Virus record (IMG/VR): IMGVR_UViG_3300044673_000327
Coordinates: 21,289-85,288 of that record
Direction: 5' to 3' (one strand)
DNA: 64,000 nucleotides
From: a virus
The position numbers and the translations under genes were made by a program. Positions 1,275 through 23,351 of this stretch are shown piece by piece; position 1 is the first letter of the stretch; each line of letters opens with the position of its first letter. Under the pieces are notes generated by a model. The model made no database searches, was not told the origin of the DNA, and worked only from the letters and a program-made list of their open reading frames with translations.

Positions 1275-1333
1275 ATACACGGACACTTTATCTCCCCGAT
1301 CCCTTCTCTCCGTCGGGGATGTCCACTAGAATA

Positions 1334-1436
1334 GATCTAGCGCGAATAAAACCCTATCAGGGATTGAAACGAATAAGTCTGCGCTTAATGCCGTAAGCTA
1401 TTTGTTTACCGCGCTCTCTAAATCCCTATTAGGGAT
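1334..1436 (+). CRISPR. CRISPR mini-array / solitary repeat unit (type I-D-like repeat, one ~35-nt spacer, truncated second repeat)
   Basis: ...AAACCCTATCAGGGATTGAAAC ends at 1370; ...AAATCCCTATTAGGGAT recurs 72 nt later; matches the 3' half of cyanobacterial I-D repeats (CCCTATTAGGGATTGAAAC); no cas genes in window. Confidence 0.7.
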
Positions 1437-1469
1437 ACCCCGAATACGAGTAGGGGAAAGTTTTAAATC

Positions 1470-1859
1470 ATGGTCTTTAATATCGATAATGAACGTCCCG
1501 ACATTCAGCGCGCCTATCACGCCAGCGAGGACGAAAAACGTGAAGCCTATTACGAATCTCTCCGAATCGACATCCCGATCGCCCGTTGTGCCAAAAGCGA
1601 AGAGGGCGCAGTAAGGTTATCCGATGCTGTTCGAGAATTAGTAGAAAACGGAGGTGGCAGAAGATTATTCTTCAAAGAGAATCTTTATCTCGATGTCGAC
1701 TGGGATGAATTACCAGAACTGATCACGACACGATTGATAACCCCCGAGGGATGGGATTATCCGCTTACCGATTCGGATAATCTAAATATCGACTGGCACG
1801 AGCCGGGTAGTCACCAGATCGAGATTTCGGTAGAGCTATTCGATCCTACCGATGATTAA
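1470..1859 (+). CDS. hypothetical protein
   Basis: 129-aa acidic ORF. Confidence 0.7.
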   Translation: MVFNIDNERPDIQRAYHASEDEKREAYYESLRIDIPIARCAKSEEGAVRLSDAVRELVENGGGRRLFFKENLYLDVDWDELPELITTRLITPEGWDYPLTDSDNLNIDWHEPGSHQIEISVELFDPTDD

Positions 1860-2692
1860 CCCCCGACGATCTCTCTGCTCGGTTTCCCGAAATAATAGCC
1901 CTGCCCCATCTCGATACCGAACGATCGGACTAATTCCAGATCCCGATCGCTCTCGATTCCCTCTGTCAGAATCGTCTTCACCCCGCTCTCTCTCAATCGC
2001 TTTACTTCCCGTTTCAATCTCTCGGGGTTAATCAGTAAGGTTCTATCGAGTTTAACGACATCGATTCCGACCCGTCTTAAATCCAATCCTTTCCGAGTTC
2101 GATCGCTCTCGGGACTCCCCCAATCATCGAGGGCGATTCTCACCCCCCGAGAACGGAACGAGTTGATAACGGCGATCTCGGATTCTCCTAGTCGATCGCC
2201 CTCGTGAATCTCGAAACAGATCGCAGTTCGGGGGAAGTTAAAACAGAACGCCGCGACCAGTTCGTGAACCGTGGGACAGGCTAATCCTATCGTGGTGACG
2301 TTGAACCAGAGAGAGGGAATCTCTTTCTTTTCTCTCTTTTCTTCCCCTACTCCAACGCCTGCGAGATCTCTCGTCACCCTCTCGAATAGGGTTCTCTTCG
2401 CCCGAATCCCTAACCCCGTATCCCAAACCTTTTTGTAGAAACCCTCGGGATCGATAACGGGATCGTCTAGCGATACCCCCGAATCCCCTTTCCGATAGCC
2501 CCGTTCGGGAAAACGACTCAATACCTCGTACCCTACTGTCTCGGTCTTTCCGTCACGATTAAGCCAAACGATCGGTTGATAAACGGGGACGAGCCGATCG
2601 AGCGCGTACCGGAGTCCGTCCATCTTGCCCGCAAGCGGGTGGGGCGAGATCTTAAATAAGTGTTTAGAAGCTATCGATCGAGAGGTAGGCAT
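1856..2692 (-). CDS. stand-alone EAL-domain c-di-GMP phosphodiesterase
   Basis: YQPIV, YEVLSR (EAL), FNV, FEIHE, IALDDWG, VKLDR, TEGIE, QGYYFGKP; ATG at 2692 preferred over GTG at 2803. Confidence 0.9.
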   Translation of the reverse strand: MPTSRSIASKHLFKISPHPLAGKMDGLRYALDRLVPVYQPIVWLNRDGKTETVGYEVLSRFPERGYRKGDSGVSLDDPVIDPEGFYKKVWDTGLGIRAKRTLFERVTRDLAGVGVGEEKREKKEIPSLWFNVTTIGLACPTVHELVAAFCFNFPRTAICFEIHEGDRLGESEIAVINSFRSRGVRIALDDWGSPESDRTRKGLDLRRVGIDVVKLDRTLLINPERLKREVKRLRESGVKTILTEGIESDRDLELVRSFGIEMGQGYYFGKPSREIVGG

Positions 2693-2838
2693 GGCAAACT
2701 GAGGAAAGCCCCGGCACAACGGGGAATATCTTTCCTCGGTTCGCGTAACGAACGGGAATAAAAGAGGGCGATGTGAAGATCCCCTCTTAGTATTTTGTAA
2801 CACGAGCCTGAAAGATCCGTCGAAAGATAGACGAATCC

Positions 2839-3404: not shown

Positions 3405-3453
3405 TTGGGTTCGGTTGATGTCGATCGCTCTCTGAAAAGGGGGCGATTTTTGA

Positions 3454-4044
3454 TTATTGAAAAGCTCCTTCTAAAGCAATATTATCAATAAATATTTCTA
3501 CCAATCCGATAGGTGAATATGTAAATACGGAGAACCCTAATGTTTGAACAGGTATATTTTGTATCGAGAACCAAGAACCTAATAACGATCGCCATCCGAT
3601 TGTGGGTGAAGAGGTTACGGGTAATTCGGCAATTATCAGGTTATTTAAATAAAACCTAATAAACACTACTAGAGGATAAGAATTCCCAAGAGCGGCAGAA
3701 CAAGAAACCCTTATCCATCTACAGTTATTAGGGATAGAGACAGATTGAGTTAACATCATCGGATTGGTTTGTGGGCTACCAACCTGAGATCCGAACGCTT
3801 GCGCTCCGTTGGGATAGGGCGTGGGTATACCAAAATCGTTATTCCCGTTAAGGATAACTGTATTGTTGTAAATTCGATTCCATCCTGTAACAGCATTAAC
3901 GTATTGAAAGCTATTAGTCGATATGACATCACTCTCAAAACTCCCATTTGCGATCGGGATATTTGCGTTGATAAAATTGCCGACAATTGTATTAACCGAA
4001 CCAGTTCTCCTACTCCTTAACTCCATTCCTCTCATCGCTAACAT
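3454..4044 (-). CDS. tail fibre/receptor-binding protein, carbohydrate-binding-module-like
   Basis: ANGSFE ... IFIDNIAL jelly-roll signature; AT-rich; within tail cluster. Confidence 0.6.
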   Translation of the reverse strand: MLAMRGMELRSRRTGSVNTIVGNFINANIPIANGSFESDVISTNSFQYVNAVTGWNRIYNNTVILNGNNDFGIPTPYPNGAQAFGSQVGSPQTNPMMLTQSVSIPNNCRWIRVSCSAALGNSYPLVVFIRFYLNNLIIAELPVTSSPTIGWRSLLGSWFSIQNIPVQTLGFSVFTYSPIGLVEIFIDNIALEGAFQ

Positions 4045-4460
4045 TAGTAATCCTCCCCGATAACGATGACATTAATCTGAGTTCCAGAAGTAGCGGCACT
4101 CACTAAATTAGCCCGTAACTGAAATCCTCTTCTCAACTGCAAGATCCGATTACCCTGAGCGTCAAACGGTAATCCCGGTATTCCAGAAAGAACATCTACG
4201 GGTAGCACGGAAGTGGAGTTTCCACTACTCGCGGGGATAGTCATTCTTCTCAGGACAAAGTTGCTCGTTCCATCCGAGATATAGAATTGAATATCCTCTG
4301 GTGCTGTATCGGTTGAAGTGACGATAATCGCTTTAATATTCGAGTCATCGACCCCCGCGGTGTAACAGGTTTTGATGTTAGTTCCGTCACTGTTAGCGAA
4401 GGTTTGCGGGACTTGTGGGTTGATGTTTTGAGCGGCTGGTGAGACGTATATTTTAGGCAT
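4044..4460 (-). CDS. small tail/structural protein
   Basis: beta-rich 138 aa; resembles 11595..12050. Confidence 0.6.
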   Translation of the reverse strand: MPKIYVSPAAQNINPQVPQTFANSDGTNIKTCYTAGVDDSNIKAIIVTSTDTAPEDIQFYISDGTSNFVLRRMTIPASSGNSTSVLPVDVLSGIPGLPFDAQGNRILQLRRGFQLRANLVSAATSGTQINVIVIGEDY

Positions 4461-4472
4461 GGTTTTAATTAG

Positions 4473-5138
4473 CTAAATGGGTGTAAAGTTATTCGTGTAC
4501 TTAGCGTATCCTCTATAAACCCGAAGATCATCCATCTGTCCTCGCCATCTCCAGTTGGGTGTATTAGCGTCGGGGGTTCCTCCTATCTGTACTGTCGTCG
4601 TATTGTTATTGTAAGGTGTATTATTTGCTAGACTACCCGCAAAACTACCGTTTCTATAAATATTAATAACCCCGCTGTATTTAACGATAGCTATATGTGA
4701 CCATTCATTTAAAGGTATCGAGGAGTTAACAATGGTAAAGTAATTACCGTTAATTACCCATACAAGTTGTGATGCGTTCATTAAAAACATCCAACTATAT
4801 CCGGAGATAAATTGGTGTTTCGATATAACTACATTCCAATCCTGACTCCACGCTGCAGGTCTCAACCAAACCTCAATTGTAAAGTCCCGATCGGTAAAAC
4901 TAAAATCGTCACCGGCTAGGGAATTTATATTAATAAAGTTATTACCATCGGTAAATTGTCCGCTACTCGTTCCGTTTCTAAAATTGGTAGTATTTCTTGT
5001 AACACCATTGTTACTAGAAGCACTGGTTTTTGGAAATGGGGATGTATCGAGAGCGGGGTTAGCTGTCTCAAATAATAACTCGTAACTCGCTGGTGGATGA
5101 ACTATTGTACTGTACAACTCCCTTAATCCGATCGTCAT
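4473..5138 (-). CDS. LamG/ConA-like domain tail fibre protein
   Basis: DFTIEVW, NEWSHIAIV, GQMDDLRVYRG-AKY. Confidence 0.85.
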   Translation of the reverse strand: MTIGLRELYSTIVHPPASYELLFETANPALDTSPFPKTSASSNNGVTRNTTNFRNGTSSGQFTDGNNFININSLAGDDFSFTDRDFTIEVWLRPAAWSQDWNVVISKHQFISGYSWMFLMNASQLVWVINGNYFTIVNSSIPLNEWSHIAIVKYSGVINIYRNGSFAGSLANNTPYNNNTTTVQIGGTPDANTPNWRWRGQMDDLRVYRGYAKYTNNFTPI

Positions 5139-5139
5139 C

Positions 5140-6123
5140 TTAAATCCCTCCCGCTAATAACATGGCTTGAATATCGGCTAGTAAATTAATCTGTTGCGTT
5201 TCGCCTATCCCGCTAACAATACTCCACCTATTCGTATGGAAAACCAACTCAACTCCCTGTCCCCCTCGATCTAATACCAGATTCGTATTCCCGACGATAT
5301 TGTGTCCCGTATTAGCGGTAATCGTGAGAGGATTAACCCCAAATCCCGTGAGTAGAGAGGAGTTGTTAAAATCGGCTACCTCGATGACATCCCCGTTATT
5401 TGGAGAGGCGGGAAGAGTGAGAGTGAATGAACCGCTAGAGGTGTTACAGAGATAGCGGGTATTAGATACAGCCGTGGTGTTTGTGGTGATGACGGATGTG
5501 GTGAGGGAAGATCCACCCCCGGCACTTACATTCACCGTAACAGCACCACCGCTATTCGTGGCGGTTACTCCAGCACCCGTGAAGTTGAAAGATGTGGCGT
5601 TAGATGTGAGCGTTGTACCCTCGTCCTGTACGGTGATAGCGGAACCTCCACTAGATACCGTACTCCACGTACCATCTCCTCTTAGATAAGTTGTATTATT
5701 CGCTGTTCCTGTAGCGGAGAGTTTCGGAATCGTTACCGCTCCATCGGCTATTTTACTCGTGCCGATCGCCCCGTCCTGTATTTTGTCCGAAGTTACGGCG
5801 TTACTGGCTATTTTGGTTGCCGTCACCGACGCGTTGGGAATTGCCGTCAGATAATTCGCGTCGTTGGTAAAAGCCGATACGTTACTCGGGAAGTTCTCCC
5901 ACGTCGCCTGTCCGTTAGTGCTGGAGGACTTGCGGAGGTATTGCCCCGTCGTTCCCCCCGATGGCAACCCGAAGATCCCGTTGAGTATCCAATCCCTGAT
6001 CCGAGTCAGGGTGAGTTTATAGGTAGCGGTATTCTCTACCTCCGATTCCACGAGTTCGTTCCCCGAGATGGAACCGGGTAGGGCATCGTAATCGGCTATT
6101 GTTTTATAAACGGGATCGGTCAT
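5140..6123 (-). CDS. tail fibre protein
   Basis: GGTTGQYLRK, repeated VTxxKI units, YLRGDGTW, TLTLPASPNNGD. Confidence 0.85.
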   Translation of the reverse strand: MTDPVYKTIADYDALPGSISGNELVESEVENTATYKLTLTRIRDWILNGIFGLPSGGTTGQYLRKSSSTNGQATWENFPSNVSAFTNDANYLTAIPNASVTATKIASNAVTSDKIQDGAIGTSKIADGAVTIPKLSATGTANNTTYLRGDGTWSTVSSGGSAITVQDEGTTLTSNATSFNFTGAGVTATNSGGAVTVNVSAGGGSSLTTSVITTNTTAVSNTRYLCNTSSGSFTLTLPASPNNGDVIEVADFNNSSLLTGFGVNPLTITANTGHNIVGNTNLVLDRGGQGVELVFHTNRWSIVSGIGETQQINLLADIQAMLLAGGI

Positions 6124-18660: not shown

Positions 18661-19989
18661 CTAGAACCCGAGTAGTTCCTGTAACTCCTTACTCCCCTGT
18701 TCGTCTAACTTGAGTCGGGAGAAGTCTACCCCGTTCCCATCACTTTCGGCGAGGAGTTCATCGAGACTCTTTTTCCCGAATCGTTTATTGAATTTGTCGC
18801 GTTCTTTCTGTCGCTTTTGTTGGATACGGTAATCGTAGGAGTTCGGGGTAATAGAGCGGTGAATTCTAGCGGCTCTCGGATCATCGTATCGGGCTTGTAG
18901 TTTCAATCGCTCCACGTCTCCCTCTCTCCACGTATCTAAAACCTCGAACCATGTATCGGGAGGGTAGATCGATTCCGATTCGGCATCGTTAAACGTCGTA
19001 TTAGGATAACGGGTCGAGGTATCGTAATCGATGACGACCGGGTACTCCCCGTTCCGTTTCGAGAAAAAGTCTACCCGACCCGGATCGGTCGTCACCGAAT
19101 GAAAAGCGGGATCTTGCCAGTAAGAAGTATTCTCGTCGGTATAGCCACCAAAGAGTACATCATCGAGAAACTTCTGGCGATCGCCCTCGGTAGAGAAGTG
19201 CATCCCCCGTTGAATTCGAGAGCCATCGAGATCCGCCGATACCTCTTCGGGTAATTGACGAAGAGTTTTATCGATAGAGAGAATGTCTTTCTTTACGGTA
19301 GGCTCGATCTTCTCGTTAACTTGATTTAGCAAGTTAGCTCGTTGTACCGATCGTTTCTGTAATTCGGGATAGTAAGAATCAAGGTTGTCAATTAGATCTT
19401 TTACCTGTTCTCGATAAACGGGTAGATCCGAGTATCTAACACTCTCGGGAATATCGACTATTCCCATCTCTTTTAAACGTGGATAACTATTTAACGAATC
19501 GATAGGTACACTCGGATCGACTTTATCCCATAACTTTTCTTCTAACATTCTCGCCATCGGAATAGCGGACTCATCTCCTCCTACAGCCTCTTTATAAACG
19601 TCGGCGAGTTGTTGTTTGTCTCGGGTATTGTCAACGGGGCTAAAGTTTAACTCATCTAAAAAAGAGTTTAAAAATCTTCCGACCTTATCTTTAGAACGTT
19701 CGTCTACAACGTTATCGAATTCTTTGTATATAGATTTTAATTCGGGGATTTCGTTCTCGAAGGATTGTCTCGATACCGCTGTATCCGCCGCTTTCTCTTT
19801 TCCGAACCGGAGGTAGTCGTTATAAACCTTATATTCATAATCCCCCGCGTATTTCTGCAACTCGATACGGATCTGTTCTTCGGTTAGAGGTTTAGCGAAA
19901 CGTACCGATCGCCCCTCTTGATACACGTTCTGGGGTTTACCGAGATCGGCTTGACGGGCTTCTTTAATTAATCTGGCGAATACACTCAT
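18661..19989 (-). CDS. putative R-S-E ADP-ribosyltransferase (VIP2/Alt-like C-terminal domain)
   Basis: IQRGM, FHSVTT, AESESIYPPDTWFEV in canonical order. Confidence 0.65.
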   Translation of the reverse strand: MSVFARLIKEARQADLGKPQNVYQEGRSVRFAKPLTEEQIRIELQKYAGDYEYKVYNDYLRFGKEKAADTAVSRQSFENEIPELKSIYKEFDNVVDERSKDKVGRFLNSFLDELNFSPVDNTRDKQQLADVYKEAVGGDESAIPMARMLEEKLWDKVDPSVPIDSLNSYPRLKEMGIVDIPESVRYSDLPVYREQVKDLIDNLDSYYPELQKRSVQRANLLNQVNEKIEPTVKKDILSIDKTLRQLPEEVSADLDGSRIQRGMHFSTEGDRQKFLDDVLFGGYTDENTSYWQDPAFHSVTTDPGRVDFFSKRNGEYPVVIDYDTSTRYPNTTFNDAESESIYPPDTWFEVLDTWREGDVERLKLQARYDDPRAARIHRSITPNSYDYRIQQKRQKERDKFNKRFGKKSLDELLAESDGNGVDFSRLKLDEQGSKELQELLGF

Positions 19990-20033
19990 CGGGGTAGAGG
20001 GAGAACAAGACCCCGAGTAGTATTCCTAGATCG

Positions 20034-20879
20034 CTAGAATATCGAACGTATCGGTAGTATCTTGGCTATCCGATTCTTATTGTCGAGAGGAAGATATTCT
20101 TTGGAATAAAGATTTCTCTGTACCTCGGGCATAAAACCACCGGAAACCTTTCGTTCCCGATCGCCCATCTCGTCCCATTTCAAAACCGTACCCGATCTTT
20201 TAGCGTTTTCTATCTCTTCATCCGTGGGTTTCGACTTAAGTTGCACCGATTCGATCGTGTAGAAAGGATTTCGTTCATCTCCCCAATATTGGAATTCTAC
20301 GAATGGAGAGGTCACGCGGTTTTTCTCCATCCCCCGCCCGGTATGAAATCTATCCCAGAGATCTCGAACGTTCTCGGGATCGGCGGAAACCAAAGGAACT
20401 TTCCCCCAATCGCGGATCGAATCCCCGATCGAAAGAGTGCTTTTTTCTAGAATAGCGGGGTTCATTTTAATAACCGATGTCTCTACTAACTCGCCCCCGA
20501 TCGAACCGTTATTGCCGATAATATCGGGTCTAGCGTAGGGTTGGTTATTTTTTTCGGGGGCGATAAACCCGTAAATCGGGGAAACGTCGGGGTTCGCCCA
20601 CTCGGGTCGCCAGTAATCGTAGTACACGAATTTTCTAGTATTCATCGCCCCTTTTCGCTCTCCCGCCCCCGGTCGATAGCCCTCTTTTAAGATCGAGCTA
20701 ACGTGTTGACGGGGAGCTATGATATAGGGAACCAACGCGCCGCTCTCTCCCGATAAAAAGCGATCGAGTAGAGCGAGACGTTTATTATAATTCCCCGAAG
20801 AGATCTCGTCATAACTCCCTAAAGGATAACGAGCATCATAATCCTGTTGACGGTAAAGATCGGCGAGATTGGAAGACAT
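20034..20879 (-). CDS. DUF3626-like protein
   Basis: SILKEG, PIYGFI, STLSIGDS, FVEFQYWG..IESV pattern. Confidence 0.5.
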   Translation of the reverse strand: MSSNLADLYRQQDYDARYPLGSYDEISSGNYNKRLALLDRFLSGESGALVPYIIAPRQHVSSILKEGYRPGAGERKGAMNTRKFVYYDYWRPEWANPDVSPIYGFIAPEKNNQPYARPDIIGNNGSIGGELVETSVIKMNPAILEKSTLSIGDSIRDWGKVPLVSADPENVRDLWDRFHTGRGMEKNRVTSPFVEFQYWGDERNPFYTIESVQLKSKPTDEEIENAKRSGTVLKWDEMGDRERKVSGGFMPEVQRNLYSKEYLPLDNKNRIAKILPIRSIF

Positions 20880-22199: not shown

Positions 22200-23351
22200 C
22201 TCGAACGACCCGAAGATCTGCCAAATGCAGATAATGAACCGTTGGAAGTCATCGTTGGAGTTCATGAGGATACGCGGGCCATCTCCACCGATACCGACCC
22301 CGATACACTGCGGGCCGAAAACGATCCCGAGTTCGGCGGTACGAGCGGCGGAACCACCGGTCACACCCGCGGGTTGGTTGGAGTAGTTCACCGTGACGGT
22401 AGCTTTAGGCATATTGGTCGTGGTGAAGTAGCGGATACCGTTGAACACGAAACCGGAGGGCATCGTTTGAGCGCCGAGCATATCGATCATCTGACCACCG
22501 GCGAGACCCGCGAACCAAGTCGAGCTAGACTGACCGACGGGCATACCACCACCACCGATCTGCGGGATAGACATCGGTTCGGCTCCGACTCCCATACTGG
22601 AGACGGGGATATTACCGGGGTAGCGGGTGATCTCGCGGAAGTCTTTATCGGCGCGGAGATCTTGCAGGAAACGGGGGGAGCAGAGACACCAGTAGTTACC
22701 GTCCTCGAAACGGGGTACTAACCGTTCGGACATACGGGTGTTCACCTCTTCCATGAAGTTGACGGTGATCTTGGGAACCTTCGATCCGTAGACGGTGCTA
22801 GAACCGATGTCCACGGTCGCGCCATCGGCGAAACCACCGGGGTTGTAGACGAAGGTGGATTTCAACATCTCGTTGATGTAAACCCGATCTTCCCAACGAC
22901 GGTAATCGTCGAGGAGATTAGCCGAACCGATCGAATCGTGGAAAGCCTGAGCGCCGTAATCCCAATATTTCCGTTGCGCCGTCATCAATTGTTGGATAGG
23001 GATCTGGAACGTCGCGGGGGTGTTCGGGCTATCGATCGCCGACGGTCCGGTGTACTCCCGGAGGGTCATGATCACCTTGTCTTTGTCGAACCCGCGGGCG
23101 TTACCCACACCGATCGTTTGGGTCTGACTACGTTCGCGAGCCGTTTTGGTTAGACTCTGCTCGCGGTTGGCGGAACTGAGTTCTTTATCCGCCCAGAACG
23201 CGGGACGATCGAGTTGCACCGAATCACCCGGGCCTTTGGTGTGGTCGTACATGACGCGGGGACGGGTGATCAGTTTAGAGATATAGGTCGGGACGGGGCG
23301 GAATAATTCAGCGCCGAGAATTAACGGAACATCATTATCGATAAAGCTCAC
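22152..23351 (-). CDS. major capsid protein (N4-gp56-like)
   Basis: 399 aa; GDSVQLDR, CLCSPRFLQDL, FNGIRYFTTTN, IVFG; downstream of portal/scaffold; AGGAG SD with GTG start. Confidence 0.85.
   Translation of the reverse strand: MSFIDNDVPLILGAELFRPVPTYISKLITRPRVMYDHTKGPGDSVQLDRPAFWADKELSSANREQSLTKTARERSQTQTIGVGNARGFDKDKVIMTLREYTGPSAIDSPNTPATFQIPIQQLMTAQRKYWDYGAQAFHDSIGSANLLDDYRRWEDRVYINEMLKSTFVYNPGGFADGATVDIGSSTVYGSKVPKITVNFMEEVNTRMSERLVPRFEDGNYWCLCSPRFLQDLRADKDFREITRYPGNIPVSSMGVGAEPMSIPQIGGGGMPVGQSSSTWFAGLAGGQMIDMLGAQTMPSGFVFNGIRYFTTTNMPKATVTVNYSNQPAGVTGGSAARTAELGIVFGPQCIGVGIGGDGPRILMNSNDDFQRFIICIWQIFGSFELIDERFCTIVRSFQN

Follow-up and report, generated by a model that had tools for sequence, protein, structure and literature searches.

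A candidate type I-D crRNA-like anti-CRISPR RNA in a putative cyanophage genome

The DNA considered here, a 64,000-nucleotide (nt) stretch that we call the window, comprises bases 21289-85288 of the 85,288-base IMG/VR virus record IMGVR_UViG_3300044673_000327 (hereafter G000; estimated completeness 62%). Near its start it carries a unit resembling CRISPR (short palindromic repeats, clustered and regularly interspaced), present as a single copy in the 85-kb record, and it is likely that this unit (window 1342-1436) encodes a viral type I-D crRNA (CRISPR RNA)-like regulatory anti-CRISPR RNA of the Cracr type. Liu et al. showed that viral RNAs of this kind redirect Cas effectors so that promoters of cas or toxin genes are silenced (10.1101/2024.10.29.618823). 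Our reading is based on homology, host context, partial targets flanked by a protospacer-adjacent motif (PAM), a period-six pattern of variation and conservation in mobile elements; transcription, processing, loading, repression and a benefit to the phage are what we infer. A first-pass annotation, made from the letters of the DNA alone, had described 1334-1436 as a one-spacer unit imitating a cyanobacterial type I-D repeat; it missed the homology of the spacer to host spacers, the continuation of the cassette to the start of the downstream gene, and the integrase that raises a phage attachment site (attP) as a rival explanation. As far as the literature searched shows, this is the first candidate crRNA-like anti-CRISPR RNA for type I-D and for cyanophages, no publication having been found that joins a cyanophage with a crRNA-like anti-CRISPR.

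Results and discussion

The pseudo-spacer copies a host type I-D mini-array

The 35-nt spacer of the unit, here termed the pseudo-spacer, first matched three cyanobacterial loci, in which it directly follows an isolated repeat in the order hairpin, ATTGAAAC, GAATAnGTCTGnnCTTAnnGnnGTAAGCT and a degenerate second repeat. Among 401 sampled cyanobacterial genomes, 9 proved by pattern search to carry the unit, and a metagenome scan gave 14 further contigs with the motif, 13 of them abutting the 3' end of a type I-D cas3'; the same mini-array is present in at least 24 distinct cyanobacterial loci. The host units lie between type I-D cas3' (TIGR03158, E ~1e-110) and cas10d (TIGR03174), at the 3' end of the former and upstream of the latter, antisense to the cas genes. 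Over its first 29 nt the phage pseudo-spacer agrees at 27/29 positions with host units L147 and L149 and at 23-26/29 with the others, and its seed, GAATAAGTCTG, is identical (11/11) to that of host units L148, L149 and L156. Similarity between phage and host loci is confined to G000 22633-22724 (window 1345-1436), and comparison with the host loci revealed no cas3' or cas10d remnant in the phage, which bears out the earlier description of the unit as cas-less.

The variation among these units is periodic. Alignment A2 holds 13 units, two from phages and 11 from hosts. Across 12 distinct pseudo-spacers the three most variable of positions 1-28 are 6, 12 and 18 (position 24 varies too), with a mean entropy of 1.49 bits at every sixth position against 0.25 bits elsewhere. 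In type I Cascade every sixth base is flipped out and unpaired, and the period-six variability is the pattern that would be expected of such flipped-out bases.

Partial targets lie beside the host units

Target sites were defined as a GTT or GTC PAM followed by a match at 8/10 or more non-flipped seed positions, on the cas-sense strand and no more than 130 nt away from the unit; for Microcystis type I-D, experiments gave 5'-GTH-3' as the PAM (PMC7648086). One or more such sites are present in 22 of the 24 distinct host loci, compared with 6/24 on the opposite, control strand, all six belonging to one subgroup with an inverted proximal site. There are usually two sites per locus, ~53-67 and ~79-93 nt from the first hairpin. 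The seed of the phage matches a host site at 9/10 or more positions in 19 of the 24 loci, and at 10/10 in 12. By direct sequence comparison the phage RNA pairs with the site of host locus L149 (GTT-GAATAAGTCTGAGCTTA) over three full segments, i.e. at 15/15 non-flipped positions, and the target at L194 mismatches exactly at positions 6, 12 and 18. Complementarity to the host sites stops at about position 17-19, and such partial pairing resembles that of regulatory crRNA-like RNAs.

The proximal host site overlaps a TTGACA that is separated by a 17-nt spacer from a TATGCT or AATGCT box, and this combination looks like the host unit's own promoter. The distal site faces the cas-sense direction, in which lie a conserved protein of 64-75 aa, a variable cargo (MNT/HepT, DUF433 or a YhcG-type nuclease) and cas10d. 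The host target sites are putative promoters, and of the targets suggested by the first-pass annotation it is partial matches in cas promoters that the evidence favours. The conserved 64-75-aa protein has no homolog in either of the two phages compared (G000 and the phage represented by contigs L161 and L175, below) and no Pfam family. No PAM-plus-seed target occurs in either phage; the first-pass annotation had seen no protospacer in the window, and there is none in the whole 85-kb record.

The phage unit and all host units have an inverted repeat within the pseudo-spacer, with invariant arms GCTTA/TAAGC, up to AGCTTAC/GTAAGCT, a variable centre of 4-6 nt and a T-rich stretch following; this palindrome might serve as operator, recombinase core or terminator. 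Host loci also contain, on the same strand as the unit and ~480-560 nt from it, a degenerate second copy of handle and pseudo-spacer (...GGGGGTTGAGAT-GACTTACGCCTGAACTTAATGCCGCAAGCT; e.g. G001:C23:1333-1359, G005:C24:74336-74362 and L152-L154), located on the far side of the target sites and the small 64-75-aa gene. This second copy may be a duplication or an integration scar.

The unit is conserved on other mobile elements

A scan for CCCTATTAGGGATACCCC identified 28 viral contigs in IMG/VR (L157-L184), and among metagenome contigs a second contig of the same sample as G000 matched 1419-1472. Two of the viral contigs, L161 and L175, are one phage (99.99% identical) with a pseudo-spacer of the same class as that of G000. 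The only nucleotide similarity of this phage to G000 is the 134-nt unit, at 85% identity (G000 22630-22760, window 1342-1472). In L161 the unit lies between tail genes and a module of integrase-like, helix-turn-helix (HTH) repressor-like and recombination directionality factor (RDF)-like genes. A promoter-like TTGACA-17-TAAGAT of L161 aligns with the TAGAAT of G000, and the similarity starts just 3' of it, at GCGAAT (1342). The two seeds are identical, and within pseudo-spacer positions 1-29 the phages differ at 12, 21 and 24.

A third element, metagenome contig L192, is plasmid-like (DUF3854 and a HerA-like ATPase) and devoid of cas genes; at 3819-3995 it has three tandem compact units of the same class (GAATATGTCTG... 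once and AAATAGGTCTG... twice) with a period of ~60 nt. These vary at pseudo-spacer positions 1 and 6, as host units do, and the contig looks like a 'Cracr array'. Conservation in mobile elements speaks for selection acting on the RNA and against a fragment in decay, since the unit is all that G000 and L161/L175 have in common, its seed is intact, L192 has it in arrayed form and the phages contain no targets.

Anatomy of the unit

The layout given by the first-pass annotation stands, with hairpin and handle at 1352-1370, 35 nt at 1371-1405, a hairpin followed by AT at 1424-1436 and a hairpin-to-hairpin period of 72 nt, as do its remarks that the 5' halves of the repeats diverge (they are unrelated) and that repeat 2 ends after its hairpin, without the TTGAAAC tail. 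Only parts for crRNA release are kept, as it had supposed, namely hairpin and handle at repeat 1 and the hairpin alone at repeat 2. Judged by conservation with the second phage, the functional extent is not 1334-1436; it begins at 1342 and reaches the ATG at 1470-1472. The individual features are collected in Table 1.

Table 1. Features in and around the CRISPR-like unit (window coordinates)
Feature	Position	Strand	Remarks
Upstream orphan open reading frame P0001, 131 aa	879-1274	+	no Pfam/PHROG match, no viral-contig relatives
Hairpin CCCCGA...TCGGGG without T-run, after P0001	1294-1318	+	read from sequence
Weak -35-like TTCTCT, 17-nt spacer to TAGAAT	1304-1309	+	
-10-like box TAGAAT	1327-1332	+	same alignment columns as TAAGAT of L161; putative promoter
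5' flank of pseudo-repeat 1, GCGAATAAAA	1342-1351	+	phage-phage conservation begins; final 6 nt match host repeats
Pseudo-repeat 1 hairpin CCCTATCAGGG, expected Cas6 recognition hairpin	1352-1362	+	near-invariant in 13-unit alignment
8-nt 5' handle ATTGAAAC	1363-1370	+	
35-nt pseudo-spacer GAATAAGTCTGCGCTTAATGCCGTAAGCTATTTGT	1371-1405	+	seed 1371-1381 GAATAAGTCTG; host-conserved core 1371-1399
Inverted repeat GCTTA-ATGCCG-TAAGC within pseudo-spacer	1383-1398	+	arms invariant, centre variable
Diverged 5' half of pseudo-repeat 2	1406-1423	+	unlike repeat 1 and host repeats except final AAAT
Pseudo-repeat 2 hairpin CCCTATTAGGG, then AT to 1436; expected 3' processing site	1424-1434	+	identical in 28 other viral contigs
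Cassette tail: ATA, CCCC (1438-1441)...GGGG (1453-1456) hairpin with Shine-Dalgarno (SD)-like 3' arm, A/T-rich to ATG	1435-1469	+	
Downstream orphan gene P0002, 129 aa	1470-1859	+	no Pfam/PHROG match

Repeat 1 belongs, as judged from its sequence, to the cyanobacterial DR5/type I-D family. Its 3' 25 nt (ATAAAACCCTATCAGGGATTGAAAC) are identical to a repeat with 108 copies in arrays of filamentous cyanobacteria, an exact match to cyanobacterial DR5 that supports the type I-D mimicry proposed at first pass, and all 120 genome matches (120/120) of the 19-mer of hairpin and handle are cyanobacterial, mostly in arrays with a period of ~72 nt. The Rfam CRISPR-DR5 model aligns to 1345-1370 over model positions 11-37 with 22.7 bits, a value that the absence of model positions 1-10 keeps under the gathering score of 40, and to 1422-1436 with 18.8 bits, likewise below 40; at the gathering threshold Rfam has no match in the window. 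The occurrence of the hairpin motif is not due to chance, CCCTATNAGGGAT having 3 matches in the 64 kb against 0.42 expected, a number reached in 0/100 shuffles. The unit differs from a canonical DR5 mini-array, in which there are two or more near-identical full repeats at threshold. The cassette tail takes the place of the TTGAAAC handle, so that the downstream RNA would carry no Cascade handle.

Relation to known systems

The Cracr study lists 219 candidates for types V-A, I-F, I-E, I-C and I-B in Pseudomonadota, Bacillota and Actinomycetota, and the text of the preprint contains neither 'I-D' nor 'cyano' (10.1101/2024.10.29.618823). It requires of the spacer 9 or more PAM-proximal nt in agreement with a host CreR/CreA-type RNA (10.1101/2024.10.29.618823), and the phage spacer copies such a host RNA far beyond that length. 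Like the published Cracrs, the unit is virus-borne outside a cas locus, has degenerate repeats that mimic the host repeat, is not accompanied by a target in its own phage, neighbours small orphan genes in a (pro)phage accessory region and exists in arrayed form (L192); the partial PAM-flanked match by which Cracrs are also recognised is found here too, in the putative promoter region of host cas or toxin genes. It differs in that its spacer is unshortened, that repeat 2 is fused to a hairpin and ribosome-binding-site cassette leading into the next gene, and that its function is a prediction.

Mini-arrays between cas3 and cas10d were predicted for type I-D, with the promoters of cas10d or of toxin-antitoxin (TA) cargo as targets (Shmakov et al. 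2023, 10.1101/2023.03.03.530964), in a study that also reported host-like mini-arrays in phages for types I-B and I-F1 (10.1101/2023.03.03.530964), and creA-like I-D elements have been noted by Liu et al. (10.1101/2023.03.10.532045). Hairpin, handle and pseudo-spacer nt 1-29 are common to the phage unit and the host mini-arrays, and so are the predicted partial targets with their GTH flank; unlike those mini-arrays the phage unit lies outside a cas locus, has no adjacent targets, has flanks of its own and another tail after repeat 2. It is a mimic and not a member of these regulatory mini-arrays, because the phage copy has neither cas neighbours nor target.

Cyanophage N-1 has a DR5 array in which four spacers separate five full repeats of 37 nt (Chenard et al. 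2016, PMC4916379). Like it, the present unit belongs to a cyanophage, has DR5/type I-D repeats and lacks cas genes; unlike it, the unit has one pseudo-spacer, hairpin-only repeats and a spacer homologous to a host regulatory RNA. Cas6 of cyanobacteria is established to cut at the hairpin base, leaving the 8-nt handle, and the N-1 repeat is cleaved by Anabaena Cas6 enzymes (10.1101/2020.04.14.041012), which shows that repeats of the DR5/type I-D family are open to processing by host Cas6 when a phage carries them.

A proposed mechanism

The RNA would be transcribed from the unit's own -10 box, with a start predicted at ~1339-1341, or by read-through from the upstream gene, and host Cas6d would cut at the 3' base of both hairpins. 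The RNA so released would have the AUUGAAAC handle, the 35-nt pseudo-spacer and, at its end, the second hairpin. It would load into the host type I-D Cascade in competition with host crRNAs, and its seed and up to ~17 nt would pair with the GTT/GTC-flanked sites that the host mini-array between cas3' and cas10d recognises, the partial match causing Cascade to bind without cutting. Bound Cascade would block the promoter(s) of the small conserved gene, the toxin-antitoxin or nuclease cargo and the cas10d effector operon, and also the promoter of the host mini-array itself; the phage copy, which lacks an adjacent target, would escape this host feedback. Interference genes, or the toxins that guard CRISPR, would thereby be silenced during infection or lysogeny.

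Several observations weigh against such a function. The type I-D targets come from sampled cyanobacterial loci, and a type I-D system with this target in the phage's own host is presumed; a comparison of the phage with 1,723 spacers extracted from ~120 cyanobacterial array loci gave no match and thus no link to a host. A regulatory function of the host type I-D mini-arrays is itself a computational prediction in the literature (10.1101/2023.03.03.530964; 10.1101/2023.03.10.532045). A sigma-70 consensus scan called neither a promoter nor a terminator upstream of the unit. The palindrome is conserved at pseudo-spacer positions 19-29, yet the targets found pair only to ~17. Integrase genes are present in both phages, and the unit is placed where lysogeny and tail genes meet, a frequent place for attP. 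Finally, the R1/R2 cassette (pseudo-repeats 1 and 2) occurs with other pseudo-spacers in ~26 contigs and may have a further or different role, and the commonest of these (TATGAACTATAGTCG...) has no host counterpart in the 401 sampled cyanobacterial genomes, in which a search at 3 mismatches gave 2 matches against 5 for the control, i.e. chance level.

Alternative explanations

The unit might be only an RNA decoy similar to the solitary-repeat RNA anti-CRISPRs (Racrs), its repeat parts titrating Cas6d, Cas7d and Cas5d and its pseudo-spacer matching merely through capture from a host locus. Racrs are repeat mimics behind promoters in phages (PMC10651486), competition with crRNAs is also part of the published Cracr mechanism (10.1101/2024.10.29.618823), and hairpin and handle are the best-conserved part of the unit, which resembles Racrs (Camara-Wilpert et al. 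2023, PMC10651486) in being a cas-less, repeat-mimicking phage RNA that probably competes for Cas proteins. The unit is not, however, a solitary repeat, as it retains the 72-nt spacing and a second hairpin and has a conserved, target-matching spacer; the seed is identical in two divergent phages whose flanks and non-paired positions have diverged, and the three L192 units vary at positions 1 and 6 like host units. We regard a pure decoy as unlikely, and the Racr interpretation offered at first pass fails on the second hairpin and on a spacer that is a conserved host pseudo-spacer with its seed preserved.

Slightly less probable still is that the unit is, or contains, the attP of a phage integrating into the host type I-D mini-array, with GCTTA-N6-TAAGC as the recombinase core and the RNA gene rebuilt after integration. 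A tyrosine integrase gene lies just upstream of the window, 2.5 kb from the unit (G000 18865-20112, minus strand; PF00589, E 1.3e-29), the L161 unit adjoins its integrase/HTH/RDF-like module on one side and tail genes on the other, and a palindrome with a variable centre resembles a core-type site. Host loci have the degenerate second copy ~510-560 nt away, beyond the target sites and the small gene, and the gap between cas3' and cas10d is a hotspot of gene shuffling (Shmakov et al. 2023, 10.1101/2023.03.03.530964), which would suit an integration site. No integrase homolog, however, stands beside the unit in the 11 host genomes that carry it or occurs in ~145 host loci, the homologs that host genome G005 has are elsewhere, on contigs lacking unit-like sequence, and no lysogen turned up. 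Between the two phages the putative core varies but the seed is constant, and neither the three-unit array of L192 nor a correctly spaced second hairpin would be needed for an attachment site. An attP role and a Cracr function are not mutually exclusive.

It is very unlikely that the unit is an inert remnant, a fragment of host type I-D locus acquired by illegitimate recombination and now decaying. The degenerate repeat 2 and the lost 5' half of repeat 1 would fit decay, but the borders of similarity coincide with the RNA and not with a random piece of host, 85% identity over 134 nt joins phages without other nucleotide similarity, and hairpins, handle and seed are intact, with a -10-like box aligned in both phages.

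Even more improbable as a full account is a cis-acting leader, in which the R2 hairpin and the ATACCCC...GGGG/SD hairpin form a 5'-untranslated cassette for stability, processing or translation of the downstream gene and the CRISPR-like part is a processing signal for Cas6 or another RNase. CCCTATTAGGGATACCCC, the conserved hairpin and an ATG do occur together in 28 viral contigs before at least six different genes, in L169 and L171 without R1, but a leader leaves unexplained a handle and pseudo-spacer that copy host units. Such a role is compatible with, and probably additional to, that of a Cracr.

Least probable of all is an ordinary virus-borne mini-array whose spacer directs host type I-D interference at a competitor, phage or plasmid, a role that has been proposed for cyanophage N-1 and archaeal viruses: the cas-less DR5 array of N-1 is a precedent and the spacer length and 72-nt period are canonical, but the same spacer occupies a fixed regulatory position in at least 24 host cas loci, unlike acquired spacers, and the competitor or plasmid target envisaged at first pass did not materialise, no protospacer being present in the phage collection, in plasmids or, by exact match, in IMG/VR (one 20-nt match in the phage collection was judged to be chance).

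A wider family of viral cassettes

The other 26 viral contigs have the same architecture with different pseudo-spacers, mostly TATGAACTATAGTCGTAGTTGCGTGCGC or TTTTCTTTACTCAATTTAGTGCG. In L158:611-800, for example, the cassette consists of the hairpin with ATTGAAAC or its variant ending in T, a pseudo-spacer of 35-40 nt, CCCTATTAGGG, an ATACCCC-loop-GGGG hairpin with SD-like 3' arm and an ATG. It precedes at least six different small genes, and in L169 and L171 the R2 and SD part stands behind a TTGACA promoter. Relatives of P0002 (47-57% identity) are the downstream gene in at least eight other cassette contigs and form the commonest family behind the cassette, 126-129 aa long with an invariant N-terminal IxNxRPDxQRAY. 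P0002 has no known domain in Pfam or PHROG, and its AlphaFold2 model from an 8-sequence alignment was unusable (mean predicted local distance difference test score, pLDDT, 36.5); the protein is a candidate anti-defence protein. Unmasking of the SD sequence by Cas6 was considered and set aside, as the predicted cut falls before the whole of the CCCC/GGGG hairpin, which cleavage would therefore leave closed.

A broader proposal, which we hold to be doubtful, is that cyanophages carry modular Cas6-processed cassettes (at least 30 viral contigs) that couple a Cascade-reprogramming RNA with an anti-defence mRNA, the palindrome adding a second layer. Each module would comprise a promoter, hairpin and handle, an exchangeable pseudo-spacer and a second hairpin fused to the SD hairpin; one Cas6 cut would both release the reprogramming RNA and set the 5' end of the mRNA of a variable anti-defence gene, and the palindrome would be a recombinase core or operator for inserting into and rewiring the host cas3'-cas10d hotspot.

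Other cas-less mini-arrays of DR5 type are present in viral contigs (L125:1480-1600, L138:1500-1640, L123, L136, L140 and L141). In L125 and L138 a clear TTGACA-17-TAGTAT/TAATAT promoter directly precedes a first repeat that is truncated and a single 35-nt spacer. In L124, L126, L131, L132, L142 and L143 one or two DR5-like repeats directly follow a tRNA-like 3' end (GGTTCAAATCC...), and the short 'spacer' is a second copy of the 12 nt TCATCTATAAGG found after this end, which may be an attachment-site arrangement.

The phage and its gene neighbourhood

The unit occupies a 195-nt gap between the same-strand orphan reading frames P0001 and P0002. A stand-alone EAL-domain (cyclic di-GMP phosphodiesterase) gene (window 1856-2803, minus strand) is convergent with P0002 and adjoins tail-fibre-like genes with Laminin_G_3 and baseplate PHROG matches at 4473-6123. 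The first 8 kb of the window have no nucleotide relatives among GenBank phages, and back-translated searches with P0001 and P0002 gave no matches, the relatives of P0002 surfacing later behind related cassettes. Tail and baseplate-like proteins are encoded in the window (PHROG/Pfam scan). Outside it, G000 has a second tyrosine-recombinase-like gene (3449-4759, plus strand), 34% identical to the integrase-like gene of L161/L175, and with two such genes the phage is probably temperate. The 85-kb record is strongly enriched in GATC (977), CGATCG (279) and the HIP1 octamer GCGATCGC (33 copies), like HIP1-rich cyanobacterial hosts. Tail genes, integrase and this enrichment together indicate that G000 is probably a temperate cyanophage. 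The sequencing runs containing the stretch are DNA contigs of rhizosphere and estuary metagenomes, with no RNA run among those listed.

Implications

If its function is borne out, the unit would present a minimal natural type I-D guide scaffold, with a 10-nt flank, an 11-nt hairpin and an 8-nt handle on the 5' side and an 11-nt hairpin alone on the 3' side, and this could be of use in designing TiD genome-editing and CRISPR interference (CRISPRi) tools. Beyond the unit itself there are signs of a larger, uncharacterised family of such CRISPR-like cassettes among freshwater cyanophages. If it does encode a Cracr, the RNA-based hijack of CRISPR self-regulation would extend to type I-D and to cyanobacteria and their phages, the cyanobacteria concerned including ecologically important organisms of blooms, mats and soil crusts. 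There would then also be independent evolutionary support for the cas3'-cas10d mini-arrays as real regulators, because phages copy them.

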